Shown here piece by piece: positions 2,569 to 63,041 of a stretch of 64,000 nt of DNA. The translations under genes and the position numbers were made by a program. The stretch is from Moniliella sp. 'wahieum'. Its lineage: Eukaryota. The notes below the pieces were generated by a model that was not told where the DNA came from, ran no database searches, and worked only from the letters and a program-made list of their open reading frames with translations. The DNA lies in assembly GCA_003971905.1 (NCBI GenBank), contig RSEE01000016.1, positions 496,001-560,000 of the forward strand, given 5' to 3'. Positions within the stretch are counted from its first letter, which is position 1. Every line of letters starts with the position of its first letter.

Positions 2569-5500
2569 AGTGGACATATAAAGCAAGGGAACAACCTGAG
2601 CAAGGGGAAGAGGAGCGAGATGCGTGCGAGACACCAGAGAAATTGGAAATGTTGGGAGTGAAAGATCAGCCAGCCGATGATACCAAACCGTGTCTGTGGT
2701 GCCCTTGTTTCGCTTAATTTGCCGCATTTTCTTGCAGGCGGGGTGGGCTGGTTCGATTGTCCGTTACCAGTTACTAGCTCTCATCTGGGCAAAACACCGT
2801 GTGTTTTTTTATATGGATCCGTCATCGATTGGACATGAGTCCAGCAGCATCAGCGAAAAGGTCGCGCGGCCGATGATGCAGATGATGCACGGAGGAATAA
2901 CTCTCAACATCTCGCCGTCTGGGGCCAGTAATAGCCCCCAGTTTTTCTATGTTAGTACTTAACGCAGAGAGGGAAATGGAGGAAAGGATGACGGTCATAT
3001 TCGTCGAGGGGAAGGAGGCGAGGTATATGTACCTCGGAGAGAAGAGAACGTGCGAGCCGAGTCACACGGAGGAAGAAAGAGAGCATAATATAAAAAGGGG
3101 AAACAGGGTCTAGAACAGATCAGGGTCCAGCTACCCTATTACTGTGGTGACTATAGTATGTGTGACCAGGTGGGTCTGATGCCGACAGTAGTTATGACAG
3201 ATCCGCTGTGTTGACCATGTAGTTGCGTAAACCGCCCGCCCCTAAGGATGATGTACGGCCGGACCAGGGGGGTAGCCCTGTCCTGCTCCATTTGTCCCCC
3301 GCATATTGGCGGCGTATGGTGGCGAGCCGTGCTCGCAGTTCCTTGTTTCTCTCTGTGTGGGGGCGACGGATATTCTGACACCGTCACTGCCCTCTTAGAA
3401 CGGACCCCGTGCCCATAGCGAGGAATTCTTCGGGTGGACATTCTAAGTAGCCACAGCTGGAACGCGGGGTCAGTCACCTAGTCAGGTCTCCCCATCGCCC
3501 CTCCACAAGGACTTCTCTTTGATCAATGTCCATCCGGATCCAGTGACTACGGAGGGGAAAGGTTGAGTACTGAGTACGTCGAATCCCCTGATGGGCCACA
3601 CACAATAATTAGTACCACACACCGTCGGATGTGCGTACTGCTATGTATATGACCCCCGGTTCTGCATCATCCTTGAAGCTTTTGAAGCTTGACGCTTGGA
3701 GCTTGAAGCTTGACCGGTGGCCCCTTTATGTGTCTCTTTCCCTTCCTCTCGTATATACGGCACCACACTCTGGTATGCCGGCCTGAATGAACACCATCTC
3801 GGCAAACAAAAAGCAACACTCCCAGTTTGATGCATGATGCATGATGCCCAGTGTAATTAGGGGGCGGACAGAGCTCAAAAGTACAGCTTCAAAAGCACTG
3901 CGCGCGTGGCCTTCATTGTTTTGTGGGGAAACCGGAAGAGAGGTGTTGGCAACATGGGTGTGGGCTCCACTGCAAGTGTCCCCTTTTGTGTGTAGAGAGG
4001 CAGACGGAGACCTGGGTGGCTGGTTCAACCATAACCATATACTCGACCGTCCAGCCGTTCACGCGCTCACGTTCACCGGCCGCTTCATGGGTCGGTGCGC
4101 CAGGGACGGCTGCTCCTCCGCTCAGTTGAAACGCCTCCTGCGTCGTTTTTCGTTCATCCTCGCGCACAAAGGCGCCACTGGCATAGCTGAGAACTGCAGA
4201 ATCGCAGCGTCGATTTTGACCTGGTCCAATGGGCCGCAGAGAGAGGCCCCAACAAAATAATATAGGGGCAGGGGCAGTTACCGCAGGTACCCACTAAACT
4301 CATGAAACTCATTAGCCCATCCGGACAGCGACTGTGACGCGCGCAAAGAGGGGAGGGGATGGTGCACGGCATACGCTTGTGGGTGAGGCTGAGGAATGGG
4401 AAAGATTCGACGCCATGCATGACATGGATGACAAGCAACAAGCCACATAGGGGCGCCGTAACGCGGAACGCGTACTACCGCGCAAGACAGATGCATCCAT
4501 CCATCAACGTTGAAGTCATCAACGTTGAACTTCAACGTTGAGCTTACCAGGGCGTGGGGCTCCGCCTGAGCACAGTCAGCGGCTGACTAGTGACTGCCAA
4601 AACGCCAACCACCAAAAAGCGGGGAAGAACAGCCAAGGGCGGAGTGTGAACTCGACGTCCCCGGTGGCGGTGGAGACAGTATGCAGTCCGAGTCACTAGT
4701 CAGCGCCACCAAACGTTCAATGTTCACTCATCCTTACTAGCTTACTCAGTACTGCGTACCGTTAATCATCGAGTTCACTATCAATCCCAGCTGGTTCGCT
4801 CCCCGATTCTGCAACGCGCCATGAAATTTCAAATGTAAACGCTCAGCGCTCCATCGGTGGATGTGTGTGGAGTGTGAACTGGTGAAAACCTTCTGCGGCG
4901 CCAGACACGCAAAAAGTTTGATTTGACTCCAGGAACCGTGTGGGGCGCTGGCGCTGGCTGGCGCTGTGGCGGCGGGGCAAGGCGGAGCCCCACAGCTTGG
5001 TCACCAACGCCCCCCAGCGCACCCAGCACAGCCAGCACACCTTGGTTTAACGTTTGCCGGTTGCCAGTTACCGGTATCGACCAGTGGCTAGTGGTGCCCG
5101 GGGCCCGGGGCCCCCTCTCCAGAGGGAGAGAGCGGTGTTGGTGCGCGGGGCTTGCCTGGCCTTCCACGGCCCATGGCGGAGATTGCGGCAATGATCGAGT
5201 CGGGAGAGGGGCTGCCGGTGTGTGTGGCACTGTGGGGCACGTTGCAGCATGGCCCGTTCTTGATCTGGCATCTTTGAATCAGCCCAAAAGCTTAAATCTT
5301 AATCAGCGCGCAATTGGCCGCGGAGGATCGATGATGCATGTTCATGGGAAGCCTAGCATGCATGATACGCATCGCGGTGGCCAGGCCAGCCAGCGCCCCC
5401 ACGCCTGGATCGGCCCGTCGCACGGAGCTCCTTGCAGTCGACTGGTATCGGTGTGGTCGGTGTGGTCGGTGCGTTCACGCGTTCACGCGTTCACGCCATC

Positions 5501-6633
5501 CCCAATCGCGACGCCAATCGCAATCGGTGGTGCTGTGGGCGGTGGAGACGCCCGTCTCAAGTGCCTGGCTCCCCTGGCGCTGCCAGAGAGCGCAGTGCCA
5601 CAGTAGGCAGCAATGCACCGGCGACAGTCCCGCAGTCCCCACCGCACCCTATTACTGCCCCCTCGTTCCCCTGTGGATGGTAGGTTGGTGGCCGGTGACC
5701 GGTGACCAGTGACCCCTCGGTGACCATCATCGATCATCGATCAGGGCGCAGCGCCAGGCGAGTCATCATCTCCTTCGTTTGGCGTTGCTCTTGCTTGCTT
5801 TGCGATTCACATCCCAAGCGCTAGAGCGCAATCAATTTACCAGTATCAATATTCAATCTGCGGGGGAAGCGGCTGGAACAAAGGGCTGGTTCGCTGGCGC
5901 CGTTGGAAATTGGAGCGTGCCCAGGCACAGGCCGGAACACATGGGCGTGAATGTGGTCATTGGGATGAACGATGAGATTGAACATGCTGAGAGAATTACG
6001 ACGGTAGGACCGAGGGGCGGGGGAATATTGGGGCCAGTTGCCCCCTCGATTCTTGGCACAAGGCCTGCTCGTGAGGAGGGCTGCCTGCGTTGCGGCAACC
6101 AGGCGGTTGGGGTCGGGGGCTGGTGCTGGGACCGTGGGGAAGATGCCGAGCACCAGCCATGCGCCCGGGGGATGTGACACACCGGCGGCCATTTGGGGGC
6201 GGCAGGGGGGCGCAGGCGGGCTGGCGGGCAGGGCGGGGGGGGAGCCCGTGGTGGGTGGGCGTGGGGCAGCACAGGGGCAGTGCCTCTCCGCATTCTTCTC
6301 CTGCCCCGTGCCCGGGCGTGCGCTGGCTGCCGCATGCGCAGTCCCCAGCCGACACTGGCGGGGTGCGCAGCAGCACGCAGCAGCACGCCCGCCGCTCTCC
6401 GCCAGCCAGCCCGACGGCGCTGCGCTGCAGGGCGCTGCTCTGCGCGGCTACCGGCTACCCACCCCCGCCGCCTCCATCTCGGCGCGCGCACACCTCCACC
6501 CGCCGTCCCCGTCCGCCTCACCTGCAGCCCCACCACCACCGCCTCCCCGCCTGCTGCCCGCCCTTGCCGCGCCCCGCCGCCCTCGCCCTCCGCGTCCTCG
6601 GCCCGCCCCCCCGTCACCCACGCTCCTCTGCTC

Positions 6634-8621: not shown

Positions 8622-8985
8622 TTTCCTTCTTGCACCTATTGTACCTTGTAGGGTTTGCCCTGGCCGCGTCTCCCCCTCTTGGTTCTCCCTGAGTACCTTA
8701 GTACTCTTGCCACTCCAGGCGAAAATGTGGAGGGGAGGCCTGCGCAGGGATTCTTGTCGGCTATCCTGTTCAGATCTCTACGTGTGACGCGTGTTCCAAT
8801 GTATCATGATGCGCATCGCTCTGCGCCCTTGGGGCGCTTCCCAATCGCAGGGAGGGGAAGGGGTTCGAATGTACCCCTCCTTTCGGAGGCCAGGAAAAAT
8901 GATTTGGAGTCAGCAAGCGTCTGCTTGAAGCTTGAGGCTGCTTCATAAAAAACTCGTGAACAAAAAAGAGGACGCCCTGTTGGGT

Positions 8986-12348: not shown

Positions 12349-15300
12349 TGTTGGGACCTGCGGTCCCGTACATAGGCCAAGGCGCCTTATCACCCTTCGC
12401 CCTCATTAATCATTTGACCTCCGAAGGCTCCACGTGTATACTCAGGCTTGTTTGAACCTTGTCTCATCTAGGTGTGGCATAAAGATTAGACCCAACCACC
12501 ACCACCGCGATTGCACTGTTCTACATTTCCAGAGGTTCATCGCCCAACCCCCTGGGTTCCTCCGGTCTTACAGAGTTACAATCCTCTTGACGCTCATTCC
12601 TGAGTACTCCCCATTCACCCCACTCCTCCATCTAACCCATTCACTCCACCCAAGTCCTGGCTCAATTCCTCAATGCCACCTCGTGCTGCTCCCGCCGCCG
12701 AGGACACACCTCGTGTTACTCCCGTGCCCGAGGCCATCCCCACTCCTACCCCCGACGATACCGCACCCATATCGTCATTGCAGACGAACGGCATCCAGGC
12801 TAATATCTCCAACATTGTCGACGTTCTCCGCCCCGTATTTGCCTTTTTCAACGCTGGGAAGATCACCTTCGAGGAGTTCCAACAGGCGGGTACTTCACAC
12901 GGGTTTTCGCTCCAATCGACGATGCAAGCCTTCACACGGATTGCCGGGGAAACATCGGTTTTCGTATCGAAGCCGAGCCGCGATAAGAACCCTTGGGCGC
13001 TACCCCCCCACAAACTTTTGCGTGAAGCTATCCGCACCGATGTGCCGTATAACGAACGCCTACACATGAACGGCTCTTTTTGGTTATGGGCCGAACACTT
13101 CTTGCCCAGTCTCCACATCATCCCACAAGGTCGCGAGCACCTGGAACAAGGCCCATCTCTGAGTGGGTACAATGAGACCCTTGATGCCCTTTTAGTCAAA
13201 GTGCTACTCCCATGGCTGGATACCGACGTTGCCCAGAGTCTTACCCTGATGAGCACTCCAGCCCTCGGCTCTGCGTACTTTCAGACCCTGCGTAGTGTGT
13301 ACGGCTTTGTGTCCGACGCTCAGTTGACACACCTGTATGCCAAGATTGCAACGATTAAGATGGGTTCCAAATCCGGCCGCCAATACCTCAACGAGTTCCA
13401 AATGGCCGTTCGCGAATACGAGCTGAGCGCGAAGACTGAGTTGGGTGAGCGGACTCTGGCACATATACTGCGGGCAGGTGTGCCGGATAGGATGTGGCTG
13501 AAGATGCATCGCAACAGCAGTTACGACGCCGTATGCACAGCGGTGAATGAACTCGACGCCTTTGTTGATGAGCAGGTCCTGCGCAAGCCATACCAACCCC
13601 AACCTCCCGCGCTCTACACCCAGCAACACTGTCAGCACTGGTACCAGTTGCGGAAGAGGCCACGGCAGCGGCGGCAGTTATCGAGGAGGATACCACGGCG
13701 GTCACTGTGGCGATAGCCGGTACGGTCCTCCTCGACAGGCGAGTCAATCTCGACTGCCCACGCACGATTCCCAATGCTTCCCTCCACAACGCCTGAGATG
13801 CCCGCTGTGCCTGAGACGGAATCGATCGTGTCCACAACCCCTCCCCACCCTTACAGGGCCAGTGCGGAGGCCGTACGCCAGCCAACCTCCCTGCGCAACA
13901 CGATTCAAGTGCGAGACCATCCGTATTCAATAAACGAAGCGCGTTTATCAATCTTCGCCCACACCGCGAGCCCATAGCGGTGGCAAACGGGCCGATCGCA
14001 TACACTGAAGGTATTGGCACCATTTCTATGTACATTCAAACCCAGAACGGAGCTCCTATCCGCATCCACCTTCCCGGCAGTTTGTACTGCCCTACCTTCC
14101 CGACCAACCTCCTAAGCGCTTATCATCTCTCTGTCGCAGGCATTGGCAGCTGGATCCCTCCAGGTGGCCATGGCCTCCACCTTGGTCGACACGGCGAACC
14201 CCTTCGTCTCGCCGCCGATTCAAGCTATTCCCTCGCTCTTGCGTCTAATACTACGGCCACAGCCAACAGAGCCACTTCGCCACTCAACCTTGAAGCAACC
14301 CTGGTCAAGGTGAAAAACGCCCACATCCGATGGAACCATGCACCACTAGATCAACTTTCAACCCTCACGTCGGACGACCCAGCATTCGAACGGGTCAAGA
14401 GTGGCGACATCGTTTTAGTCCGGTCCTCGTGGCACTGTGCCCCATGCGCACTAAGCAGAGCCACTGTCCCCACCCCACGCTACGACTGGACGCCCAATCC
14501 GAACCATTCGCCCTTCTCTCTCTCTTCACCTCGATGTCCTCGACATATCCCGCCAAAACGGTGGGGGTCATACGTACGCCCTTATCATTGTCGACGATTT
14601 TACGCGGTATACCTGGACGCTACCCTTGGTGTCCAAGGGTGATGCCACAGCCCAACTTCAGGCCTTTATCCGGCGAGCATCGCCAACATCCCGACCGCCC
14701 CCTCCAGACTGTCCACTCTGACAATGCGCCTGAACTTACCACCGCAATGGACGACTTTTACTGCGAACTAGGCGTAGTGAGCGAGCGCACACCAATCCTG
14801 GCGAAAGTGCGTCCAATGGGGTCGCCGAACGCGCCATAAGATCGATTACGGATCGCGCTCGACTCATGGTGGTAGCCAACCGATTGATTCCCGACGAGTG
14901 GTGGGAACACGCTTGTTGGCAGCCACATACGCACACAACCAGTCGCCGCCAAAGGCACTGGGTGGTGACAGTCGATTTGTCCGATACCATGGCTTCAAAC
15001 CTTCCTTCGCATGCGCGGGTTTGGCACCCTTGCTTACCTGCGCCTATTGACCAACCAACGCGAGGGAGGCATACTTGGTCCGCGGGCCATCCCAGCGATG
15101 TTGGTGGGTTACGGGCACGGCCGCGGTTCGAAGGGGTGGCTCTTTGCCATCCACCAGGATGACGGCCAAGTTGGATTCCGTTGGAAAAAGCCGTCCACCT
15201 GGACACATGTCCCGTACACCACCGAATATCCCACGCACTTTCATCTGGACCCCCTTGTTCCTTCTGGTGGCGGAGAGTTGGGGGTGGGCGGAGGGATGGG

Positions 15301-15579
15301 TGCTGTGAGGCAGTCAAACAGCTCTCCACCCGTCGGCGTGTGCGTTTTGCGATGGATGAATCGCAGTCCCGTACATAGGCCAAGGCGCCTTATCACCCTT
15401 CGCCCCTCAGGCCTCATTTGACCTCCGAAGTCTCCACGCGTGTATACTCAGGCTTGTTTGAACCCCTGTCTCCTCTAGGTGTGGCATAAGGCTTAGACTC
15501 AACCCCACCACCCCGCGATTGCATTGCTTTACATTTCCAGAGGCTCATCGCCCAACCCCTTGGGTTCCTCCGGTCTTCA
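12349..15579 (+). mobile_element. Ty1/Copia LTR retrotransposon, internally deleted (no RT/RNase H)
   Basis: 5' LTR 12349-12572 (TGTTGGGAC...GGTCTTACA). 3' LTR ~15362-15579 lacks its first ~11 bp. Flanks CGATA/CGATG. Domain order gag-PR-GAG_pre-integrase-integrase is Copia-type. Confidence 0.9.
12673..15360 (+). pseudogene. Copia gag-pol remnant (gag, aspartic protease, integrase)
   Basis: Gag-like 12673-13716. Protease HDSSA...IAVANG...GIGTI...LYCPTFPTNLLS. AHIRWNH...CAPC zinc motif. Integrase IVDDFTRYTW, VHSDNAPE, NGVAERAIR, RGFGTLAY...RAIPAMLVGY. Confidence 0.88.
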
Positions 15580-24138: not shown

Positions 24139-25395
24139 AACCTCTAAGAGGAGTGTGTCATAGTTTGGCTGATCTCGCTCCCATTTCCAATTTCTTCGTC
24201 TCGAGCGTCTCGCTCCTTCCCTGTTCCTTCCACTTCGCACCATGTCCTCTGTGCTTGCTTCTTCCCCACGAACGATTGCTACACCCCTTGGCCTAGTCCG
24301 ATCCTGGTCTCCCTCGCCTTAGCCCCGACTGTGACATTATCGTTCGTGGGGAAGAAGCAAGAACAGAGAGCGAGATCAGCCAAAGTATGACAGAGCATTG
24401 ATGCCTGAGGAGGCGCAGCTGATATGGGCAAGCGCAGCTGCAAAACAGACCTGATGGAAATGCCATGTGGTTGGGCCGCCACCACCGGCGTAAAACACAA
24501 AGGTTAGAGAGTAGGTCTTATAAACGGGCTGCTGGTCCAGTCAGGCGCCAGTAGGCCCAGGCAAGGCAACAACTGGTAACCGACAACCGCCGAGGTAATC
24601 TCTACCACATGTCTGCCGGCTGCCCAATCGTGCGTGCTTGCTCCTGACTTGAGTTTCAATTTTAAGCATCAAGCATCAAGCACCATGCATCAAGTGCATC
24701 AAGCTTCAAGCATCACCGGTCACCGGCAAACTGATGCGACCGGATCCCCATTGCAAGCGAATCGGCAAGCAAGAACGGGAGGTCAATAGAAGTAAGTAGA
24801 GTCGGGGAGAAGGAGGAGGGGACTTGTACGCTACGACTGCCGAAGCTGCAAGATGGAGGCACGTCCGACTGCCAGACTTCCCCCGGGCGGAACTAGCGGA
24901 GCCTGCGGGGAGGAAGCGGCTGGGAGCGCCAGAGTTCGGTTATGCTCTCGGCGCACTGCACTAGTGTCCCAACCAAGCAGGGTTGCCTTCTGAAGTTTTG
25001 CAGCGCACAGCTTCACCGGTGGGCCGGGACTAGTCACTGGCGCTCCTTAGAAGCGCTCAGGCGCTCAGGCGCTCAGGGTTCGGCTGCGCCCCGGTGATAA
25101 AATGGGCTGTCTCACAGCGGCATTGCCGAAAGGGTGGCGGGCATTGGGCCGACACTGCCCCTCCGCCCGTCTTCGCATGCATTGGTAATCGCCGGTCCAA
25201 GCCGGCACCCCACCAGTGTCCCTCTGCCTGCCCGGCAGTCCTGTCGGCATGCGTGCTTGCCGAAGGATACGCAAGGGGCGCAGCGAGCCCATGACAAAAT
25301 TCGGAGTGGCCACTTTTCTACAAAAGTGTCTGCCTACCCAGTCAGCTGGTGTTGCGCACCGTCGACGACTACCACCTTCATTCCCCCTCATCGCC

Positions 25396-26626: not shown

Positions 26627-27021
26627 GATGCGCAACTCGGATCCTCCTCCACGGCTTATGTATGGGCAGCGGGTGGAGAGGATTGACTGCGCTTGGTTCG
26701 CTGCAGGCCCTTGGATCCGCCATCCGCCCTAGTATTATTGGCCCGTTGCAGTGCGCTTGTCCTGGCACTTTGTCTGGTATACCTTCCCCTCCACACTACT
26801 TGTTCCCCTCAACGTTCAACTGTCGTTTCGCCCTGTTCTTCATTCGCATGAATCACTCAGCTGTTAGTGGATGTGTAAGCGTGACGGATGTTGTCATAGA
26901 ATACTTGTGATATGTGAGCCCGGGCAGGGCAAGCACGAAGAGGTTGATATGTCGAGATGCCTAATGGGTTAGCTTCCCGGCCAAGAGAAGGCAAATTTTG
27001 CTCTTCTTTAAGTACCAATCA

Positions 27022-27108: not shown

Positions 27109-27540
27109 AACTTTTGCAGCCAGGATCTACCCGTACCCACTGATAAGGACCCTTCCATGCCCATCTGTCTGAGGCCGGACGCGCGAGCCTCCTATGTATG
27201 GTGGACTCGCCGTCGTCTTGAACCTGTGGACAAGGCAATGTCATGGCGATGTTGGATGGTTTTGGGGAGTGTAAACATGACTCCGACATTCATGCCACAC
27301 CTGGAAGAGACAACAGGGGCCTGAACGTCTTGAACAATAAGAAGGGAGAGATATACCCGCGTATCGACTTCGGAGGTCAACAATAAGATACAAAGAGAGG
27401 GAGTATGTTGACAAAACTAAGCGCGCCGTTTTGACGTACGTATAGTACTTGCGGCACGGGCGGGTGTGAAAAAAAAATTTCGCTTAGATGACCACATCAC
27501 CCAAAAATGAGTAAATTTTTCCGAATATTACCTTCGGCAC

Positions 27541-28200
27541 TTTGGCCACATGAGGTCAAGCGCTTTGGCCCAAGAGGTCAAGCGCTTTGGCCCAAGAGGT
27601 CAAGCGCTTTGGCCACATGCGTTCAAGCGCTTTGGCCACATGAGATCAAGCGCTTTGGCCACATGCGTTCAAGCGCTTTGGCCACATGCGTTCAAGCGCT
27701 TTGGCCACATGAGATCAAGCGCTTTGGCCACATGCGTTCAAGCGCTTTGGCCACATGCGTTCAAGCGCTTTGGCCACATGCGTTCAAGCGCTTTGGCCAC
27801 ATGAGGTCAAGCGCTTTGGCCACATGCGTTCAAGCGCTTTGGCCACATGAGATCAAGCGCTTTGGCCACATGCGTTCAAGCGCTTTGGCCACATGAGATC
27901 AAGCGCTTTGGCCACAGGTCAAGCGCTTTGGCCACATGCGTTCAAGCGCTTTGGCCACATGCGTTCAAGCGCTTTGGCCACATGAGATCAAGCGCTTTGG
28001 CCACATGCGTTCAAGCGCTTTGGCCACATGCGTTCAAGCGCTTTGGCCACATGCGTTCAAGCGCTTTGGCCACATGCGCTCAAGCGCTTTGGCCACATGC
28101 GCTCAATGGCTTTGGCCACATGCGCTCAATGGCTTTGGCCACATGCGCTCAATGGCTTTGGCCACATGCGCTCAAGCGCTTTGGCCACATGCGCTCAAAC
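27541..28200. repeat. 23-bp tandem minisatellite (~29 units), subterminal repeat of the CMC element
   Basis: Unit TCAAGCGCTTTGGCCACATGCGT, with variants ...CATGAGA/GAGG/GCGC and TCAATGGC. ORFs over it show the expected 23-aa periodicity. Confidence 0.97.
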
Positions 28201-28460
28201 GCTTAGCTGTTGATTGGATGCGTGCTTGTAGGCTTTCTAACCGGCTGGTTGGATGGGGCTGGCATCGATCCAGAACTACTAGATTTATAGGCAGGGTAGG
28301 TATTTCTTAGGTATAGAATGCATTCGAAGATCGCTGGGAAGCGATGACACGGCAACCACGGTTAGGTGTGACGTCAGACGGAAGCACCACAACATAGTAG
28401 AGCAGTGAGCGGTACAGAAAGTGGCAGGTTAGTATGAGGGGAGCGCGCACTAGGGAGACG

Positions 28461-29152: not shown

Positions 29153-29612
29153 GGCAGCAATGCAGACCAGGCGCGGAGAACCGAGCGATGGGGACGGGAC
29201 TAGCAAGGCGGGCAGTAAGCAGTGCAGGCAACAACGATGGTGATGTTAGTGGCCAGGGGAAGAAGATGGTGCTGTTGCGCCGTGGCACAGCAGAGCACTC
29301 TGAGATGTGTTGGCTGCAGAGATGGGATACTGGTTGCTGCGGGCGCAATGAGAGGGGCGGTGGTGAGGAGACAGGATGCAACCACAGAGGAGCAGGAGGT
29401 TAAAAGGAGGCGCGTGTGGCGCAGCCACATTCTGTGCGCACAGACCAATCTGGACCACGCCAGGGGCCTAGGTAAGCTATTATATCTGTCTATTAACGCC
29501 ACAACACTAGCGGCCCCCTGCAGCAGTGTTCAAGGGTCTAATCATCAATCAAGCTTCAAGAGCGCTCTCTTGAGTTTGCCGATTTGCGACTTGCTGTAGT
29601 ACTAGTTGTCTC

Positions 29613-29875
29613 TGTTGCGACGGTGACTGGTTACTGGCTTCGCCGAACGCGACGCACTTGCAGCTTCTCTAGCCCCGAGGCTCCGCGGGCTCCGAAGACT
29701 GCTGATGCGCGCGTACCCGCGTAAGCCAACGACGAATAGCCTTGTCCAGTATAGCCCTCTCGTCCTGCTTCCTACCACCAACGCCTATCTCTCGCCCGCA
29801 ATCGATCGTTTACGCTACTGTCCCAAACGCTTCAGCATTCATTGCGGTCTCCATAGCCGGGTGAATCGCTATACA
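29613..29875 (+). mobile_element. LTR, family A, nested inside the CMC element
   Basis: TGTTGCGACGGTGA...TCGCTATACA. Shares GAGGCTCCGCGGGCTCCGAAGAC and GGTCTCCATAGCCGGGTG with 2332-2568. No TSD seen. Confidence 0.8.
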
Positions 29876-30037
29876 GGTCACGATTATCCTCACTTGATCC
29901 ATACTAGTGGCCTACGGTGTTACATCAAGCTTCAAGTGAATGGGCACCACATGACTTCTTATGTTCACGCACGATGCACCAAAGTCCTTGCGCAGGCCGA
30001 ATGAATGGTCAGTGCTATATCACTGGGAGGAGCTCCT

Positions 30038-32374: not shown

Positions 32375-35300
32375 ATGCATCATGTACAACCCATCGCCCA
32401 TCCTTACCAAGTCGCCACCGCCATGCTTCGACCTCGGCTCAGTGGTGCCGCCCGATGGAACAAGCTCGCACACGTGCACAATGGGACAGAAGCATCTGCT
32501 GTACCTGTTTCCTCGGCCTGGTCCACGGTGCAGCAGAACGGGAGGTTGCTGTTCCAGTGCCGTGCTTGCCCAGTTCGACCGATGACCCAGTTTGATGCAC
32601 TCAAGCACGCGAAGGTGCGCAAGCACATCCATAACGTGGTGCTGGGTGCGAGGATGGGGGCTAGTCACGCCCACGCCATTGACGAGGTGGCCGAAGATGC
32701 GAGCATGCCCCCCCAGCCACCTAACGCACGCTCGCCTTCCCCTGCTTCCCGTGCCTCTTCACCTGTAGACACTACCATGGCCGAGGACGAGTTAGGCCAG
32801 ACGCAGCCCAGTGTTTCCTTTGAACCGCCTTCAAGAGCCCACGGGCGTGTCCTTTGCCGCCCGTGGGCGCGTGACAACCCGCTCGGCGCCTCGAATGAGC
32901 GTGTCGAGCAAATCCGCAACCAAGAGACTCTCGAGCACTTGCTTTTGGGCCAAGGTGATGATGTGATCGGCGACGAAGATGACTCGAACTGGACTGATGC
33001 CGAGGATGACCTCGACTGGGACAGGGAGATGATGGGCGCAGGGTCGAACGCCACGGCGCACGCAGCCGGATGCATTGCGTCTTCCGCCACACAGAGACGG
33101 CAGCATCACGGCTGGCGGCCCAAGCCTCATGCTGCTGAAGCAAGGATCAAGCTTCTGGAACGACTGGTGGCCAATCCCCCAGCGTCATGGCCTGCCGCAG
33201 GCGTCTTTGAGTCACCAATGGTACGTCACATGTCACATTCTTGCTCTCTTGCTCGTTTGAGTGTGACTGGTGAGATTAACCTGCCAGCCGCAGATCTGGG
33301 CAGTTATGAACGTGTTCTATGGCTCGGTATTCTCCTTCTCAAGGCGCCAGGCCCGGGCAGCATTGCTCTTGATGCGGCTCGCCCGCTGCTTGCAGTGCGC
33401 CATACCTACATGGCACAAGGTGTCGCAAGTGCGGAGGAAACTCAACGGGCCGTTCACATCTGTTCCGAAGTATGTTGACTCTTCTCTGAGCGAGACGTAC
33501 TTCAGTCCATTGGATGAGATCGCACGTCTGGCGTATGGCAACACCCGCTTGCGGAGCGTGATCGAGGACTTGCCAGTGAAGCGAGCTGTGGTGCGCAACG
33601 TATCAGATGGCCAACGTTTCTATAAGGTCATGTCACGACAGCCGACTGCTGTCAACAGCTGCGGGAGAGTATTTTGGTTGGACGAACCCGCGGCTGTGAA
33701 GAGGCAGAGACCTGACACACAACCTCCCCATCCCCAGCGGATCGTTCTTGTCCAAGGATGGCACATTGAAGCTGACTCAAACGCTCCTCGGCGTGTAATG
33801 GCCCGTGTGAGAGACATGGTTCTGGATGATGGTGCTGGAGGCGCCGCTGGCATGATACGGCAAACATATCGTGTGTCCCCTACAGCTGAACAATCGGTTG
33901 TTCCACTCGACGATCTCACGCCCTTCAAGGAACAGGCCTACCGTCGCCTGTCATTTCGCGACCAGTCTGGTGACGTTGTGGCGCAGAACTCGCTCCGCGC
34001 CATGTCTAAGGAGCATGGTGCCGACCGCGTTATCTTTGCACCCATGATGGCTTGGTGCGACGACGCGCGCGTTTTCAGCCACAGCCGGCAGCGTGCGGGT
34101 GCAACAGTCATCTACCTGTCCTGGGCCGGTCTTCCTCAAAGCCACCTGTTCGCGGATGAGGGTACGAGTTTGTTCATGGTCAAGCTGGGAACTGATGAAG
34201 TGCGCGCGTTTGAGGCCCTTGTGCGCCAGGTCCAGTATGTCTTTGTTACTAAGCTATCTTATATATATGTCACCGCTGACTGGCATTTCTGCTCAGGATA
34301 TGGGGAAAGACAGGCATCAAGGGGGCCGACGGAATATCAGGCCGCCCGATTGTCCTCATCCCCCTTGTTCATGCTGTGGTAGCGGACAACCCAGCGGGAA
34401 ACCACCTTGCTGCCCGTGCCCTCAGTCCTAGCCCCCTGTGCTGCCGTATTTGCGGGGCCAATTTCCAGAACCGCGGCCATGCTGACCAAATTCTGCATGT
34501 GCTCACAGGAGGTGTGAAGCGAAGCAATAAGCAGATCCAAGCGAACCTCGAGAGGCAGGTGGATCACGCTATCCTGGGCAATAACGCTGCATACGACCGG
34601 GAACGCGCCGCGACGGGCGACAGGGACCCCAACGTCCACCGACTCTGCTGCTCCTGTGTCGCCGACATGGACATGTTCGAGAATAAGGGTGAGAAGCAGC
34701 CCATTCACACTCGCCCGTCCCGGAAGGGATTTGCTTTGCCTAAGACAAGGGCTAGGGTCATTGAGCTGAACCAATCCGAGGCGGACGATCTGCGACGGAA
34801 GAGTTTCTTGATGTGCCCGGCGCTGTCCCTGCCGCAGTTTGATGTGGCGGACTGCTTTCCCCTCGACTTTCTTCACACCTTCCTCCTCGGAATAGGGAAG
34901 GACCTGCTAAAGTTGGTGGCGACAAGGGTGAAGCCTAAGGCGAAGGAGCAATTGGCGATATTCATCAGCGGTCTCAACACGGAGGGTATCCCTGGCGCAG
35001 AGGGCACCAAGATCCGAGCTAAGGGTTTGATGGCTAACCTAAAGACTGGGGTTGGGAAAGATGTGCGCACTATGCTTGTGGCTCTCCCATTCGCGGCACT
35101 CCCTATCCTTGAGACCGGAAAAGAGGCCAACAATGAGAAGGAGTTCACGTTTCCGATTCCGCTTTATGATGCTATCGTCGCGGCAGCCGACCTGCATGGT
35201 TTGCTTTCCAGGACATGGTACCCGGCAGCCGGGCAGGCCAGGGCCCAGTTCATGGTACGTCCCACAGCCTTGATTGATATACGGGTTTAGACGCTGACAT

Positions 35301-40620: not shown

Positions 40621-40847
40621 GGGGTGGGAGTGGGAGGTAGGGTGATGTCCAACAAGATAGGGGGTGGTTGGGCTAAAAGTCAGGAAGGCTGAGTGGGATC
40701 AAATTTCAAACCAGTAACATGTCAACCTGGTGACTGGTGACCGGCAGGGTGACCGATGACTAGCAAAGTGTGATTATCTCGGACCGACAGACGAGGTGGT
40801 CCCTTCGTGATACCATAAAATTTTGCATCGCTTGTTGCGGGGTATAA

Positions 40848-43742: not shown

Positions 43743-44467
43743 GGCAGGGGGGGGGGGTGGTGGTGGCAGCGGGCGGTCGTTCGACCTTACGTGGGCGAGC
43801 AGGGCGATTGCATGACAAGACCGACCGTTTCTGCCATGGCTTGCTGGCTGCTGCGAGTCTCTGCCGGCGTCCAGCCCGGGGGAGAAACGCCTGCGCAGTT
43901 CCGCTGGGCGGAATGGGATGGGCCAACCCCAGCAAGCCGAGGATCCCCCAGGCTGATCTGAGCAGCGCTCAGCTGGCGGAGGCCCCCCGCTTGCACCGAC
44001 TCGCGGCCCGGCCGCCCGAGCCGGCACAGGGGGAGTGGCCGCCTGCCGGTGGAGTCTGGGAGTGCGCTACGTGTGACATGTGGCATGTGTCATCTGACAT
44101 GATGCATGATGCATGATGCATGATGCATGATCAACCAACATTCCGCACGAGTGCGCTGCTGGCGCTCGCTAATCGCGCGCCAATCATTCTCGACGCGGAC
44201 CTTCTTGAAATGAACATTCGATAGCCAACCTCCCGCGACGGCCCTTGCATGCGGCCTCCGGCCTTCTACGGCCGCTTGCTCGGCTTGGCCGCCGAGTGGC
44301 TTCAACTTCAAGCTTCAAGCTCCAAGCTTCACTAGTCAGTCCACCGAGTAGCTCGTCTCTCCTCGCCCGCCCAACGCCGCCTCGCACGACAGCCCCCAAC
44401 AGCTCACCCAGCGTCGCAAAAAGACGCCACCCCCGCTCCCACGCTTCTCCGCCCCCTCGCCCCCACC

Positions 44468-48418: not shown

Positions 48419-51082
48419 TTAAAGTCGCGCCATGCCAACACGAGCCGCAGAAAGAGCTGCCGCCGGCGAAGTGTTGAGCGAGAACAGGCGCGTCGCCGGC
48501 GTCATCGCATAGTTGGACGGCAGCCCGGCCACCAGCCCCGCAACCGAGGGCGGGGAAGTAATGCCATAGTTGATCCCCGCCAGTGCCTGCGTCGTCTCGA
48601 GCAAGGGCTTGCGTGGGCCAGTTAGGTGCTCCAGGACCGCCGCGGAACGGACAGCCTGGGCTTGCGCCTGTTGGGCCTGGACCTGTACCTGGACTGCGCT
48701 CGCCGCCGGGCTAAGCGATCCCGACGAGGCAGAGTTGAACGCACCCTGCAACACTGCTGCCACGGCCGCCGGGTTGACCACCGACGAGCCATACTGCGCC
48801 ACCGCGTTGGCCACAATCGCTTGGGTCACGCTCGACTGCGCCGCCGCCGCCAACGCTGCCTGCGCCTGCGCCGCCACCTCTTGGGTCTGGGCTGCGGCGT
48901 TCCAAGCAGCCGCCTGCTGGGCCACGGCACGCTGCTGGTACACCTGCTGGGCGATGGCACGCTGCTGGGATACCTGCTGGGCAATGGCATGCTGCTGGTA
49001 CGCCTGCGCCACAGCGGAACGTGCGTATGTGGAAGCGGCCGCTTGCTGGATAGCGCTCTCCACCGCATGCTTCGCTACACCCGAAGACTGTGCCTCAAGC
49101 GCGCGCGCCACCGCTGCCTGCTGATTGGCGCTGGCGACCGAAGAAGCAATAGACGACTGAGCCACCGCAGCATACGCAGCCGCCTTGAGCGCCGCCTGCT
49201 GCTTTCCGCCTGTTGGGTGGCCGCGGCCCACTGGACAGCATTCGAAATGGCTGCTTGGGTTAGGGCCGACGTCTTAGCCGCCGCCAACGACGACAATACA
49301 CCCCCGTCACTCCAGCTTGCACTAATGCATTGTCCAGGACTGATTGCGTGTGGCGCGACGCGACCGTCTCCGAAAGTGCCGCCGCCACGTCGGCCGAGGA
49401 GAGACCAGTAGCAGCTTGTAGAGCACCAGTTGAGCCGTAGCTGGCCAAATCGGCCGCGGTAGCTGCCTCGAGTGCAGAAGCGGACCTGTAGCCAGCCAGA
49501 CCGGCAGCAGCCGTCTGTTGGGCAGCGTAATTCTGAGCCTCTGCCGTCTGGGCAGCAGCCGTCTGCGCAGCAGCCTTCTCAGCAGCGTAAGTCTGAGCAA
49601 CAGCCTGGGCAGCAGCCGCCTCAGCAGCATATGTCTGAGCCGCAGCGGTCCGGGCAGCAGCGGTCTGGGCAGCGTACGTTTGAGCCGCAGCGGTCTGGGC
49701 AGCAGCGGTCTGGGCGGCGTAATTCTGTTGGGCAGCGTAGTTCTGAGCAGCATAGTTCTGGGCGGCGTAGTTCTGAGCAGCAGCCGTTGAGCAGCCACCG
49801 TCTGGGCAGCCACCGTCTGGGCAGCAACCGTCTCAGCAGCAACAGCATTAACAGCAGCGGCCTGCGTAGCGGCCTGCGTAGCGGCGGCAGATCCGTACCC
49901 GTTGAACCCGGAAACGGTGCCGCCGTAGCCGGATAGACCAGATGCGGTAGCCGCCTGAGCTGCCTGGATCTGGGCAGCCTCCGCAGCCGCGACAGATCCA
50001 TAGCCGGCCAAGCCAGCGGACTGAGCCGTCTGGAGAGCAGCGCTGGTTCCATTATACCCGCCGCGACCAGCGTAAGCCGCTTGAGCTTGTTGTGCCGCGG
50101 CAAAAGATCCATAGCTGCTCAGATCAGCCGCCGTTGCGGCATTAGCACCAGCGATCGAGTTGTATCCATACAGACCAGCCGCCTGAGCGGCAGAAGTGGA
50201 ACCAACAGTAGCAATCCCGCTGTCGTAGGCAAACTTTGGGTGTATATGATGAAGGAACGAACAGGTCAGTAAGGTGGAAGAAAAGGAGAAGAGCAAATCC
50301 GAAAAAGACATACCAGGTTGGCGGCAGCAATGTTGCTCGCTTGTGAGGTGATGGCCGAGTTGGCAACGGCCGATTCGGCCGCTTGCGAGGCGATGAAGGA
50401 CTTGTTCGCAGCTGTCTGAGCGGCAACGGTGGCAACATCGGCAGCCTGGGTGGCCTTGTAGGCCGCCTCACTGGCGGCTTGGGCTGAGAGTTGCGAATTG
50501 GATGCATACTGGTTAGACTGCTGGGCGGCCAACTCGAGACTGGAGAGGAAACCAGACTGGATTCTGATGCGGCGGCAGTCTGCTGCGACGCCACAAGGGT
50601 CGAAGCTTGCTGTTGCTGGATCTGGCTCAGGCCCGCGACGGATTGGGCAAAGCGTTCTTCGGCAATAGTTTGGTCGATGCGCGACGCGAGGATATCGGCA
50701 CCGGGCAGTGCAATGCCAGAAGCATTGAATACCAAGTCAGCTCTGCCCCCCCATGCCAAGGGTAGCTCGGAGAACAACTGGGAATAGGCCGCGTCGAGCG
50801 CCATCCCGCCAACGGCCCGCTGGGTGGCAAGGTCCAACGCCAACACCGAACCCGACAGAGCGGAAGAGCCAAAGGAAGAGGAGGCGTCAGAGCAGCCTGG
50901 AGGAGGGGTGGAGACGGCGCAACGAAGGACGCGGTGGCCCGACTTGAGCAGGCCGAGGGCGACGGGAGACCGTAGTCCGCATCGCCTATAAAGACGATGG
51001 TCTTGGGTGCCTGGGCTAGGCTGCTGGCAGCCAGAGGGGCGGCACCCAGTGGAGCTGGAGTGGGAGATTGGAAGAAGGCCAT
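48419..51082 (-). CDS. Ala/Gln-rich low-complexity repeat protein, possibly secreted or cell-surface
   Basis: ATG 51082, intron ~50234-50313, A/Q/S/Y-rich throughout, 15-nt tandem units at ~49500-49840 (AAQTV/AAQNY/AAQTA), stop 48419. Confidence 0.75.
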
Positions 51083-52244
51083 AATGGTGGGGGCGGGAAG
51101 TGCTGGTTTTTTTGAGGGGGGGTAGAGGGGAAGAAGAAGACGGGGCTGGGAGAGATGCGGTTGAAGACGGACGGGGGGCTGCTTTTATACACACTCCAAA
51201 AGAAGTGATTGTATGTATGTGGTGGGTAAAATTATGTCGCATCAGAAGAGACTATACCAATCATACCATGAATACCACTGCATTTGACGAGAGAACCCAG
51301 CCCGCTGTGGCGCCTGCAGAGGCGCACGGGCCCGGAGGAAAGGAGAGAGGAGTGCACGGGCCGAGTGGAGAGGAGAGGCGCGGGGGCTATGCACGTTAAA
51401 AGGTGGAACGGATGGGGTGGACGCATACCGAAAAGTTAGTAGGAAATGCCAGGCTAGGGGCGCAGGCAGAGTATATTTCTCAGGAGCGGCGTGGTACTAA
51501 TGTGAGCAAGAGCCGTGGCACTGTATCGCACACTCGCCGTGGGCATCCGAGCAGTGCAACATGCCTCCGAGCCAGCCAACAACAGTGCCTCCGTCCCTTG
51601 CTGTCCTCCCCAGCTGCTGCGGGCAGCTGATGAGGCTCAGCGCTCACGCTGAGCTCTGAGCGCGCTCAGGCCCCTCCGCTCCACTCCACCGCCCACCTCC
51701 CACATGTTAGCCGGCGGAGGTGGCGACGTCTCCATGCTCCTCGTTGGACTAATGGAAGGCTCAGCCGCTCACTAGTCACTCCCCTCTCACGTCACAGCCC
51801 GGAAACTAGCGCCGTGCGGTCCATATGCATGCCGGCGGGCGCAACGCCGTCACACTGGTGCTGTGCTGCTTGGGAGGCGGTCGTATATATAACTAGCAAC
51901 AGGAGTATAGCTCTCTCTCTGTCGTGCTGCCGCCAAAAGCCGGGGCCCAGTCCCAGGCGCACAGCCAGATACATTCGCCAGAGTGCGGATGGGGGTGGGG
52001 GCAAATTGTAAGTTAGTTGCGCTTGGAATCCTCCTAGGTCCAACCCTTTTCGAAGGAGGGCCGACATTGGTGGGTGCAGTGTGGTGTTGTTTGTGTTTTT
52101 GGTAAAGACACTGCAGAGAAGAGAACTTTCACAAAACATTCTTCAGTGTGTGGAGGCCAAAAGAGAAAAGAAGCAAAATTGAACTCCAGCACTGGCTGTG
52201 TTGAACAGCAAAAGTGTTCTTCGTAATGTAGCCCACGCTGCGCT

Positions 52245-52465
52245 TGTTGAGCCATCAGGTGGCTCGTGCTTTGGCCAATGTCCCTTCAGTTCCTCCTCAG
52301 GCCTAGGAGTTCCGTTGTTTTCTCTCCTGTTTTTCCTTGTTCCGCTTAGCCCCTGGTGGCGACTCGCTGCTTGATGTTCCTCTGTAGGCATTGCTGGTTG
52401 CCACCCTACCACCACCCGTGCGATTGCATCACCCTCCAGGACCATCAGGACTCCAGGTCTCATCA
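52245..52465 (+). mobile_element. Solo LTR, family B, no matching TSD
   Basis: TGTTGAGCC...GGTCTCATCA, near-identical to the other two family B copies. Flanks GCGCT / CTGGG differ. Confidence 0.9.
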
Positions 52466-53126
52466 CTGGGTATGGGAACGGATGGAGGGGGCCACCATAG
52501 GGTCCTGATCCAACGGATTGAATCTCTTGGCGACTCCCCTGGTTTTCTAAACGGGGTCGCCGCCAAAAAGCAACACAAGCCGGATGATCGAGCTTTGTCG
52601 ATGATATGGTTACAGTTTCCCTTGTGGTTCCCTAAACGGGGGGGGGGGTTGGCGCGAACGAGCAACATAAGTCGGATGAGCGGGTCGGTTTACAGGCGCA
52701 GCGTTTCTTTGTTCCAGCCTTAAGCTCTGGAAATGACATGGTCACAGCGTAGAGATATGCAGTTTAATTGTGGCTATGAGACTAGCGACCGTCGTTACAC
52801 ACACTACAGACTTCTGTTGCCACACTATACGTTAGCATCACTATCGACATCATCGATGCATCAGTATCGGTCTTTAAGCTTCAAGGTTCACGGGTTATAC
52901 CAGGTTATACTACCGGGCGGGACTCCAGGTATCGGTCGTAACGCGAAAGGGGGGAAGCTTCCTTTTGGTGTCGACCCATGGTGGGGTGGCTCGTGTATTT
53001 TTGCCCCAAAGGTTCTTTTGGACTTTCCCTCTCTTTTCACTGGCCACAAGCTCCAAAAGGAACTCCGATATTCTCGCTGCTGTTTGCCTCGTTTCGCAGC
53101 CATGGGGTCGGTGGCGAATGGGTGCT

Positions 53127-53482
53127 TGAGTACTCACTGAGTACTGAGTCCTTATATACATGTCTCTGGTATATCACACCCACCACCACTATATATAGTG
53201 CTGGAGTGCTGCATCTCAGATATGGCTAGATGACTAGTGACTAGTGACCGGTGACCGGTGACCACTAAGTGACTAGTGGCTATTATAGAGACTCTCCTAT
53301 TGAGAAAGATCTTTTCGGCTCTCAGATCTCACACGCTCCCATCTCAGATCTCATGTCGAAACGACGACCTCCGAAGTCCCCAGGCCTCAGCATGAGGCTT
53401 GACCGGCTGATCCCAGGGCCCTGAGCCTCAGGAGCGTCAGGATCAATTGCATCCAATGGGCATGATGCATGATGCATGATGC
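53127..53482. repeat. Cluster of 7-bp-period TGA/TCA-plus-palindrome motifs (representative cluster)
   Basis: TGAGTACTCACTGAGTACTGA; TGACTAG TGACTAG TGACCGG TGACCGG TGA; CTCAGATCTCA twice; (ATGCATG)n. Confidence 0.9.
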
Positions 53483-56006: not shown

Positions 56007-56576
56007 CTTTGAACGAATCGAGAGAGGGTTGGATCCTTCTCTCTCGGTCTGTACCCTTCTTTTCCCTCTTTCCGTTTCCCTCATACTTTTGTTTCTGCTA
56101 CCCCACACTTTCCCTACTCTTCCCTTTCGCTTTGATTGGCCACCACCATTATTTGCAGTCATTGGATCTATGTGTCATGGGTATCTTTTCTTTGTGATCC
56201 ATCCTTATCCCGCCTGAGCAGGCCAGATCGCAGGCCGAGCAAACGGATGATTTAGAGGATTACTCGATTGATATGCGGTAAAGGAGTTGTGGAGGAAGAG
56301 TAGGAGAAGAAGAGCTGACAAGGGTGGGGACTGGGATAAAAACGGTAAGATGTGGGTTGTGGAGTCTCTGCCGTGACTGTGAAGCTTGAAGCCGCTCATG
56401 TGCTTCTGCGACTTTGGGGCGCCATGTCCCACCTGGTCACAGTCTCACCTATCCGACTGATATCTCACATCCCCGATCTCACAACTTGCACGACCCCATC
56501 CCCCAAGTCGCCCTGTCACATGTGCCAAACAGCTTGCGGCCGCTGCCCCTTCCTGGGGCAGCCTGTCCAAAAAAAT

Positions 56577-61998: not shown

Positions 61999-63041
61999 GG
62001 TCTCGGGCCGGCTGCGAGTGGTAGTGGAGGGGGGGAGGTGGTAGCGGGAGAGAAAGAAGGTTGAGACGTGGTAAACGCGGTGAGAAGCGGGCTGATGGGG
62101 TGACCAGTGAGGGACCGATATAGGAAGGAGTGGGTGAGCGTGTGAGCGCTGCTGACTGATTTACGGACACTGGAGATCGAGAACTCGGAACTGACTTGAA
62201 TTAGTTCAGTACTGAGTGAGCGTGACGCGTGACGCGTGACCCGTGGCGTGTGATGTGCTGTGGAAATTATCACAGCACACTCGTCCCGAGCCTTCCGCCT
62301 TATGTCCAACGGTTAACAATATGACCGGTGACAGACCGGTGACCTCGCCTGTCATGCATGTCGAAGGTGTTTGCTGACATCATGCATGACGTCACTTCGA
62401 CAGCACTTGTGTGGCAAAGGGCGTCACATCAGTGTCATGGTGAGAGGGTGTCAGATCTCAGAGCCGATCTCAGAGGGTTTATTAGTTCGGTACAGTGTCT
62501 GAGTCTCGCTCGAGACCAGTCGGGCCCTGAGGCGGCCTCAGAAGGGTCAGTCGCTAGTCCCTCACTACTTCACTCCGTCACGCGTCATGAGTCATCCAAT
62601 ATGACTTCACCATCGCGGTGCGCGCGTTCAATTGATCGAAACCTGAAGCTCTTGAAGCTTGAAGCTCCATGCTCAAAGCTCCAAGAGCCTCAAGGTGCAT
62701 CTTTTGAGCAGGTTATTTCGCACCCAATCCAAGTTCGAGGCGTTGTATACGAGAGGTCGCGCAGGAGCCAGTCCTCAAATGCGTGCGAGCTCCATGTGGG
62801 ACACCCCGCTCTCTCAATGAGCCAACAGTTGTGGAGAGAAGAGGAAACGAGGTGGGGGGACAGGGCCACATCTACGTCTGGATTACTGAGTGAGTAATAT
62901 GGGTGCGAGTGTGTTGGAGGAGATCTGGGATGGAGGTGGACCACATCATGACAGCCTGGTATAGAAGGTCGGTGGGCACTGGTGCACTGGTGACAACTAC
63001 ATACACTTCTGACAATCTTCCAGCTCACAGGATGAGGCATC

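Follow-up and report, generated by a model that had tools for sequence, protein, structure and literature searches.

Palindromic-core TGA/TCA arrays at 7-bp spacing in non-coding DNA of Moniliella sp. 'wahieum' as probable flank-templated insertion scars

Results

Genes and arrays in the window

The 64,000-nucleotide (nt) stretch analyzed here, positions 496,001 to 560,000 of contig RSEE01000016.1 from the basidiomycete Moniliella sp. 'wahieum' (assembly GCA_003971905.1), contains short arrays in which the triplet TGA or TCA recurs every 7 bp, separated by a 4-bp palindromic core. All counts given below were made in this single 64-kb window, meaning the stretch at its full length, and all positions are numbered within it. 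The window has a G+C content of ~57% and a eukaryotic layout. Pfam matches were obtained for fibrillarin, a PX/PXB/DUF3818 protein, VIT1, an M28 peptidase, a Srk1/Rck2-like kinase, a UCH protease, an aldo/keto reductase, an open reading frame (ORF) with a C2H2 zinc finger and a Copia-type remnant (Pol_BBD). The closest named relatives of the kinase are proteins of Ustilaginomycotina (Tilletia, Melanopsichium, Thecaphora, Moesziomyces and others) with 65-70% identity, and the top identity, 81%, is to one further protein. For the aldo/keto reductase all named relatives show at most 38% identity. Protein matches of this kind suggest a sparsely sampled basidiomycete that belongs to Ustilaginomycotina or is close to them.

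Several arrays are located in the gene-free 3 kb that precede the divergently oriented kinase gene. In the following, a flank is said to match when the 2 nt downstream of an array equal the first half of the core or when the 2 nt upstream equal its last half. At 53127..53147 an inverted-type unit (TGA-GTAC-TCA) is followed after one base by TGA-GTAC-TGA and then GT, and both flanks match the core. The compound array at 53231..53263 consists of (TGA-CTAG)x2-(TGA-CCGG)x2-TGA followed by CC, and here CCGG equals the downstream CC plus its inverted copy. Two single TCA-GATC-TCA units were found at 53322-53331 and 53344-53353, in both of which the upstream TC equals the last core half, and (TGA-TGCA)x2-TGA followed by TG is present at 53463..53481 with both flanks matching. 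The same gene-free region also contains the single units TCA-GCGC-TCA (51637) and TCA-CTAG-TCA (51769), which span 51637..51778.

The motif is specific for TGA and TCA, for a 4-nt spacer and for palindromic cores

These arrays had been described before from the bare sequence as a promoter-associated grammar with a freely interchangeable palindromic core (referred to as the original prediction), and the four arrays quoted there, at 53231-53261 (TGA-CTAG-TGA-CTAG-TGA-CCGG-TGA-CCGG-TGA), 24699, 44323 and 3704, are present as written. To define the background, 100 dinucleotide shuffles of the window were used. Pairs of the same triplet in the form T[GC]A-N4-T[GC]A (TSA-N4-TSA, with S being G or C) were observed 86 times, compared to 30.5±5.3 in the shuffled sequences. 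In 46 of the 86 pairs the N4 is palindromic vs. 2.0±1.3 in the shuffles, and a second set of 100 shuffles yielded 1.58±1.22 palindromic-core pairs with a maximum of 6, so that the proposed enrichment of palindromic cores is found. The spacer of 4 nt is specific as well, since spacers of 0-3 and 5-11 nt give 20-46 pairs where ~30 are expected. When all 64 triplets were tested around palindromic 4-mers, TGA (24) and TCA (22) stood alone; the next triplet, ATG, reached 7 and represents a shifted register of the same TGA/TCA arrays.

The same specificity is seen in tandem duplications in general. Exact period-7 tandem runs with at least 7 matched positions occur 30 times, whereas periods 4, 5, 8, 10 and 11 give 12-14 runs. 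The unit ab-TSA-b'a' (a prime marking the complement) accounts for 16 of the 29 non-trivial period-7 runs, and it is due to these 16 runs that period 7 exceeds the other periods not divisible by three. Duplications of period 7 that are built from any other unit number 13 and thus remain at the background level of 12-14. The cores comprise 15 of the 16 palindromic 4-mers, TATA alone being missing. The assumption that cores made of A and T only do not occur was not confirmed, as ATAT (5846), TTAA (12403) and AATT (40699) are present as single units.

As an outside control, 139 arrays of at least four (TGA-N4) units from 125 metagenome loci were analyzed. Palindromic cores were found in 27 of their 1045 TSA-N4-TSA pairs (2.6%) vs. 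46 of 86 in the window, which indicates that the grammar is lineage-specific and not general to heptamer repeats. Related fungal loci were not found in the metagenome scan, and the loci L062 and L093 look bacterial. On the bacterial-looking contig L062 inverted arrays of TGAC-type heptamers (TGACTGG/TGACCGG/TGACTAG) are located at 301-331 and 436-460, ~100 bp apart and between ORF-like regions; they possibly form an operator pair and are unrelated to the fungal arrays.

The core is copied from the flank

The 46 palindromic pairs group into 36 loci, which are distributed over 14 regions. In 22 of the 36 loci the first core half is identical to the 2 nt downstream and in 16 the last core half is identical to the 2 nt upstream, where 2.25 would be expected by chance in either case. 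A match on one side only is seen in 26 loci, on both sides in six and on neither side in four. The boundary of the match is sharp, as the third nucleotide beyond the core also agrees in just 10 of the 26 one-sided loci (counted by hand). Counted per pair, a flank match is present in 43 of 46 palindromic but in 13 of 40 non-palindromic TSA pairs, several of the latter being one-step derivatives such as CCAG, AGCA and CTGG. Palindromic pairs with other triplets show a flank match in 25 of 79 cases, some of which are the same arrays in a shifted register. In addition, TSA together with 2 nt is directly repeated at a distance of 7 bp in 32 of the 36 loci. The central S is mostly kept, with 46 same-triplet compared to 10 inverted-type palindromic-core pairs (46 of 56 the same).

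The basic step can therefore be written as xy-TSA-uv -> xy-TSA-uv·v'u'-TSA-uv, or in mirror image as xy-TSA·y'x'-xy-TSA-uv. It adds 7 bp, namely a direct copy of TSA with two flanking nucleotides plus a 2-nt inverted copy. The core is palindromic whatever its letters because it consists of the flank dinucleotide and its inverted complement, and it varies because the flanks vary. In 32 of 36 loci the core is thus a copy of flank sequence and not freely interchangeable.

A related explanation was tried and rejected. If a pre-existing palindromic heptamer had been duplicated and had then decayed, matches on both sides, one side and neither side would be expected in ~10, 18 and 8 loci, whereas 6, 26 and 4 are observed (chi-square ~7.3). 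In addition, ab-TSA-b'a' singles occur 191 times vs. ~129, and this excess is approximately what the arrays contribute themselves. We consider it very probable that the arrays are flank-templated insertion scars of some kind.

Two cores at one site in an LTR-like pair, and compound arrays

Direct repeats of ~215 bp are located at 12360-12569 and 15363-15577, 3.0 kb apart, with 190 of 215 columns identical. They bracket Copia-like ORFs, one of which matches Pol_BBD, and are probably the long terminal repeats (LTRs) of a degenerate Copia-like retroelement. The two copies differ in 20 mismatched columns that fall into 16 runs, and the sole run longer than 2 is the core of a TCA-N4-TCA unit. At the same TCA, copy A carries TCA-TTAA-TCA (12403..12412) and copy B TCA-GGCC-TCA (15407..15416), both in the common context CC-TCA...TCA-TT. 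TTAA is predicted by the downstream TT, being TT plus its inverted copy, whereas GGCC is predicted by the upstream CC, being the inverted copy of CC and then CC. The LTR-like copies thus hold side by side both products predicted from one ancestral CC-TCA-TT. Neither a binding code nor slippage nor footprints of element termini can easily account for the occurrence of TTAA and GGCC at one site.

The reported switch of the core within an array while the register is kept was seen in all four compound arrays (53231, 24699, 3704 and 44308), each of which is built from two adjoining blocks. In three of the four the downstream flank agrees with the right block, and the left block matches the upstream flank cleanly at 44308 only. 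The other left blocks are preceded by more degenerate units or, at 53231, show a 1-nt offset: CTAG would need an upstream AG and the sequence reads CTAG-A-TGA. This suggests that mixed arrays like CTAG/CCGG at 53231 are two products of one site. An AG/CT-TSA-CC site processed on both sides would give CTAG/CCGG or AGCT/CCGG.

The loci are depleted in coding-like DNA and concentrated in 5' gene flanks

None of the 36 loci lies in the 26% of the window that has a positive codon score (binomial p 1.8e-5 if the loci are independent, ~0.014 if the 14 regions are), and as far as it can be tested the arrays are indeed intergenic, as had been proposed. With 26% of the window this coding mask is conservative. 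By a cruder test, 13 of 36 loci are covered by an ORF of at least 450 nt compared to 64% of all window positions. Four 5' gene flanks contain 24 of the 36 loci: those of the zinc-finger ORF (3564-5855), of the M28 peptidase (44100-44338), the divergent 3 kb before the kinase (51637-53481) and that of the reductase (62206-62662). From the gene positions alone, an association of the arrays with promoters is plausible.

The cluster upstream of the C2H2 zinc-finger ORF (3564..5855) comprises nine loci, located at 3564, 3683, 3704 (an AGCT/CCGG compound), 3828, 4584, 4693, 5696, 5727 and 5846 (ATAT). Within the same stretch TCAACGTTGA, a perfect 10-bp palindrome of the inverted type, occurs three times with a 13-15 bp period (4502-4545). 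The flank of the M28 peptidase-like gene contains (TGA-TGCA)x4-TGA (44100-44130) and a compound array of TCA-AGCT... and TCA-CTAG-TCA (44308-44338). The cluster at 62206..62662 lies 200-660 bp upstream of the ATG of the aldo/keto reductase (61998, minus strand) and is made up of five loci (62223 with CGCGx2, 62322 with CCGG, 62451 with GATC, 62578 with CGCG and 62653 with AGCT), accompanied by an inverted-type TCA-GTAC-TGA at 62206.

The other loci are scattered. A compound array at 24664..24726 consists of TCA-AGCA/AGCT units and then TCA-CCGG-TCA-CCGG, with a matching CC downstream. Single TGA-AGCT-TGA units are present at 8926..8935, where the upstream flank matches, and between the kinase and UCH genes at 56380..56389, followed by AG. 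TCA-ACGT-TCA at 26809..26818 is followed by AC, and two single TCA-AGCT-TCA units within 29549..29934 (29549 and 29925) are each followed by AG. The single TCA-CATG-TCA at 33226..33235, followed by CAT, is situated at the frame switch between two long ORFs and therefore probably within an intron. TCA-TGCA-TCA at 37066..37075 matches both flanks, and TCA-AATT-TCA at 40699..40708, with its all-A/T core, is followed by AA.

Repeats of other types were also noted in the window. A gene-poor stretch at 27540-28204 contains ~29 tandem copies of a 23-bp unit with 93% match, a repeat of 54-56 bp is present in ~3 copies at 17805-17992, and coding-type repeats of 15/45 bp lie within a long minus-strand ORF at 49543-49841.

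Discussion

Proposed scars of transposon insertion and excision

We propose that the arrays are scars left by the insertion and subsequent excision of a cut-and-paste transposon and not a recognition code, a reading to which we assign a probability of roughly 55%. On insertion, a cut-and-paste DNA transposon would duplicate 7 bp of target with TSA in the middle (nnTSAnn), and it would later be excised via perfect hairpins on both flanks, by the chemistry of Transib, RAG, MULE and hAT. The host would then open the hairpins 2 nt from the tip, which would leave self-complementary 4-nt overhangs, uvv'u' on the left and y'x'xy on the right. If only one overhang survived end joining and the other was trimmed, the result would be exactly +7 bp with one of two possible cores. 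Each scar would provide a new TSA target, and reuse or slippage could then build the arrays. The clustering in 5' gene flanks would reflect a preference for insertion, or tolerance of it, at these positions. A direct duplication is the product of staggered integration, and an even palindrome copied from the flank is that of an off-centre opening of a perfect hairpin. The combination of a direct duplication and P nucleotides thus argues for cut-and-paste insertion and excision rather than for spontaneous fold-back. In this respect the fold-back (hairpin-templated) process considered in the original prediction was partly right: the palindrome is indeed a 2-nt flank plus its inverted copy, but the direct duplication of TSA and 2 nt had been missed.

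A number of observations weigh against this reading, the basis of which is a single 64-kb window. In the window none of the pairs of inverted termini is flanked by identical copies of nnTSAnn (0 of 918), TSANN (0 of 5927) or NNTSA (0 of 5458), and no DNA-transposase family was detected among the 151 ORFs scanned. The scar is always +7, which is far more uniform than the heterogeneous junctions of hAT or V(D)J. By-products that the model predicts show no enrichment, with 36 pairs vs. 30.8 for spacer 0 and 21 vs. 29.9 for spacer 8. Of the 46 spacer-6 pairs 13 have a palindromic 4-mer at one end, and we tried to explain these as variants that keep the untrimmed dinucleotide of the upstream flank; this was rejected, as the predicted flank is present in just 2 of the 13. 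Variants with a 9-bp period (TGA-palindrome-NN) are located at 2872-2889, 3673-3690 and 4414-4437. The 7-bp length of the duplication is one that we infer from the symmetry and from the LTR-like pair, and single loci are explained equally well by a duplication of 5 bp and P nucleotides on one side. That the same TCA was used in both LTR-like copies requires an extra assumption, either a prior element or a hot spot. Most economically, though speculatively, a small element could have resided in the LTR before retrotransposition and could then have been excised separately from each copy. The four loci at which neither flank matches also count on this side, and so do the 10-bp palindromes of the inverted type (TCA-core-TGA), which occur 10 times vs. 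1.8±1.3 and are not explained by the model; a longer-hairpin reading suits only some of them as judged by eye. Finally, the model does not explain a 24-nt stretch, GAGsGTG-TSA-GATC-TSA-GAGCCGA, that is near-identical at the unlinked positions 53316-53339 (minus strand) and 62444-62467 (plus strand); from one copy to the other, G and C are exchanged in the middle of both triplets, and the surrounding DNA is unrelated.

Other explanations

According to the original prediction the arrays might be a functional code, with TSA half-sites spaced by 7 bp that either are recognized by a lineage-specific DNA-binding protein or determine where nucleosomes are placed. The non-coding location of the loci and their clustering upstream of genes would suit such a code, and TGAC-type half-sites resemble bZIP sites. 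However, a reader of TSA needs no palindromic spacer and even less one that is copied from the flank, as is the case in 43 of 46 palindromic vs. 13 of 40 non-palindromic pairs. Moreover, 29 of the 36 chains have a single core, each cluster contains both TGA and TCA orientations, and the two LTR-like copies carry different cores, each following its own flank. A binding or nucleosome code is thus not supported and we regard it as very improbable. Heptanucleotide microsatellites, generated by slippage together with hairpin-templated (quasi-palindrome) correction, would account for the arrays of 2-4 identical units at 44100, 53463 and 3828 and for the one-step intermediates CCAG, CTGG and AGCA. 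Such a process should not prefer TSA units, though, while other period-7 units stay at background (13 vs. 12-14), and it explains neither the one-sided flank rule (26 of 36 loci) nor TTAA and GGCC at one site. Also the TGA heptamer arrays of the metagenomes are hardly ever palindromic (27 of 1045). The remark in the original prediction that slippage alone is insufficient was borne out, as the excess is confined to TSA-palindrome units and the flank rule is one-sided in 26 of 36 loci. We therefore judge this explanation quite unlikely.

A palindromic core between direct TSA repeats would also be left by a Tc1/mariner-style element with a 3-bp TSA duplication, the core then being the terminal nucleotides of both element ends (xy + y'x'). 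This candidate was rejected by the flank rule, as neither flank should match in ~88% of the loci compared to the 4 of 36 observed; besides, at least 15 different element termini would be required, and TTAA and GGCC at the same site would be impossible. It is accordingly given hardly any weight. An assembly or sequencing artefact has next to no credibility, since the pattern is sequence-specific, depends on the flank, avoids coding DNA and differs between paralogous copies, and we know of no sequencing error mode that produces such a flank-dependent pattern. It is possible, though rather unlikely, that the same scars arose by an endogenous process without a mobile element. One candidate would be a nuclease of the host, perhaps derived from a transposase by domestication. 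At nnTSAnn sites in open promoter DNA it would introduce staggered breaks with hairpin caps, which would then be repaired by end joining. For this speak the lack of a transposon or transposase in the window, the highly stereotyped outcome, the same TCA being struck in both LTR-like copies and the clustering of 24 of the 36 loci in four 5' gene flanks. Against it stands that two steps, staggered joining and hairpin cleavage, are needed, both of which a transposon provides with insertion and excision, and to our knowledge no enzyme performs the two at one break. Furthermore, 64 kb is too little to rule out an element elsewhere in the genome. A maker of a new type is a doubtful idea that would take one of two forms. 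It could be a new cut-and-paste family that duplicates a 7-bp target with TSA in the middle, excises via perfect hairpins in the manner of RAG/Transib, and swept through a basidiomycete lineage before vanishing from it. Alternatively, it could be a promoter-cutting nuclease retained (domesticated) by the host. In both cases promoters would be altered 7 bp at a time by a lineage-specific mutator, which would also increase the number of its own targets.

Implications

With the flank rule the apparent promoter grammar becomes a readable mutational record, in which the original site and the processed side can be reconstructed for each scar. If the model of transposon insertion and excision is true, the scars map past insertions in a genome that now seems almost free of DNA transposons, and such elements targeted 5' gene flanks. 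The scars put TGAC-like words and short palindromes into promoters, by which regulation may have changed. The model also provides a precise rule that can be applied to the unexplained small repeats of smut fungi. For genome scans in general it is a caution that periodic palindromic motifs near genes can be products of repair and not binding codes.

Comparison with known systems

Target duplications measure 8 bp for hAT, 8-10 bp for MULE and 5 bp for Transib elements. It is established that hAT, Transib, MULE and RAG excise via hairpins formed on the flanking DNA, and for Muta1 a hairpin of 43+43 nt is reported (both in the accessible part of PMC5499845). Like the footprints of hAT, Transib and MULE and the V(D)J joints of RAG, the scars keep a direct target duplication, and as in P-nucleotide footprints the extra bases repeat the neighbouring flank in inverted-complement form. 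The even palindrome implies a perfect hairpin, as for RAG/Transib and Muta1. Unlike the hairpin-type footprints, the scars have a TSA-centred target with a visible duplication of 5 bp (7 bp deduced), and a single outcome dominates, +7 with a 2-nt P tract on one side. By analogy the scars would work like a P-nucleotide excision footprint, an assignment that is incomplete as the element itself is missing.

For P-type excision we know of no use of flank hairpins. Galileo, a member of the P superfamily, makes a 7-bp target duplication with the odd-centred palindromic consensus GTANTAC, according to the accessible part of PMC4168063. A palindromic 7-bp duplication around a free central base would be shared with nnTSAnn. 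However, the consensus is a different one, Galileo is an animal element and scars are absent from its description in this part of PMC4168063. With heptanucleotide microsatellites the scars share the head-to-tail 7-bp units in 2-4 copies, but their unit is limited to ab-TSA-b'a' and the flank serves as the template for the first extra unit.

In the literature searched the motif TGANNNNTGA was not found printed, and the searches yielded nothing relevant on 7-bp target sites in basidiomycetes or on palindromic 7-bp excision footprints in Ustilago. For U. maydis, Ali et al. (2014, PMC4081816, in the part accessible) refer to numerous 10-bp repeats as suggested footprints of earlier transposon activity, and credit this suggestion to both Laurie et al. 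(2012) and Schirawski et al. (2010). These 10-bp repeats do not appear in the searchable supplements of PMC4081816 and are not mentioned in the accessible part of PMC4824034. Like them, TSA-N4-TSA measures 10 bp, lies between genes and has the same proposed origin. The subphylum is probably common to both fungi, as the kinase of the window is 65-70% identical to proteins of Ustilaginomycotina. The 10-bp repeats of U. maydis, likened here to the scars by size, place and proposed origin and not by sequence, as the accessible descriptions allow, may be the same phenomenon, which would count as already known if the two prove identical.

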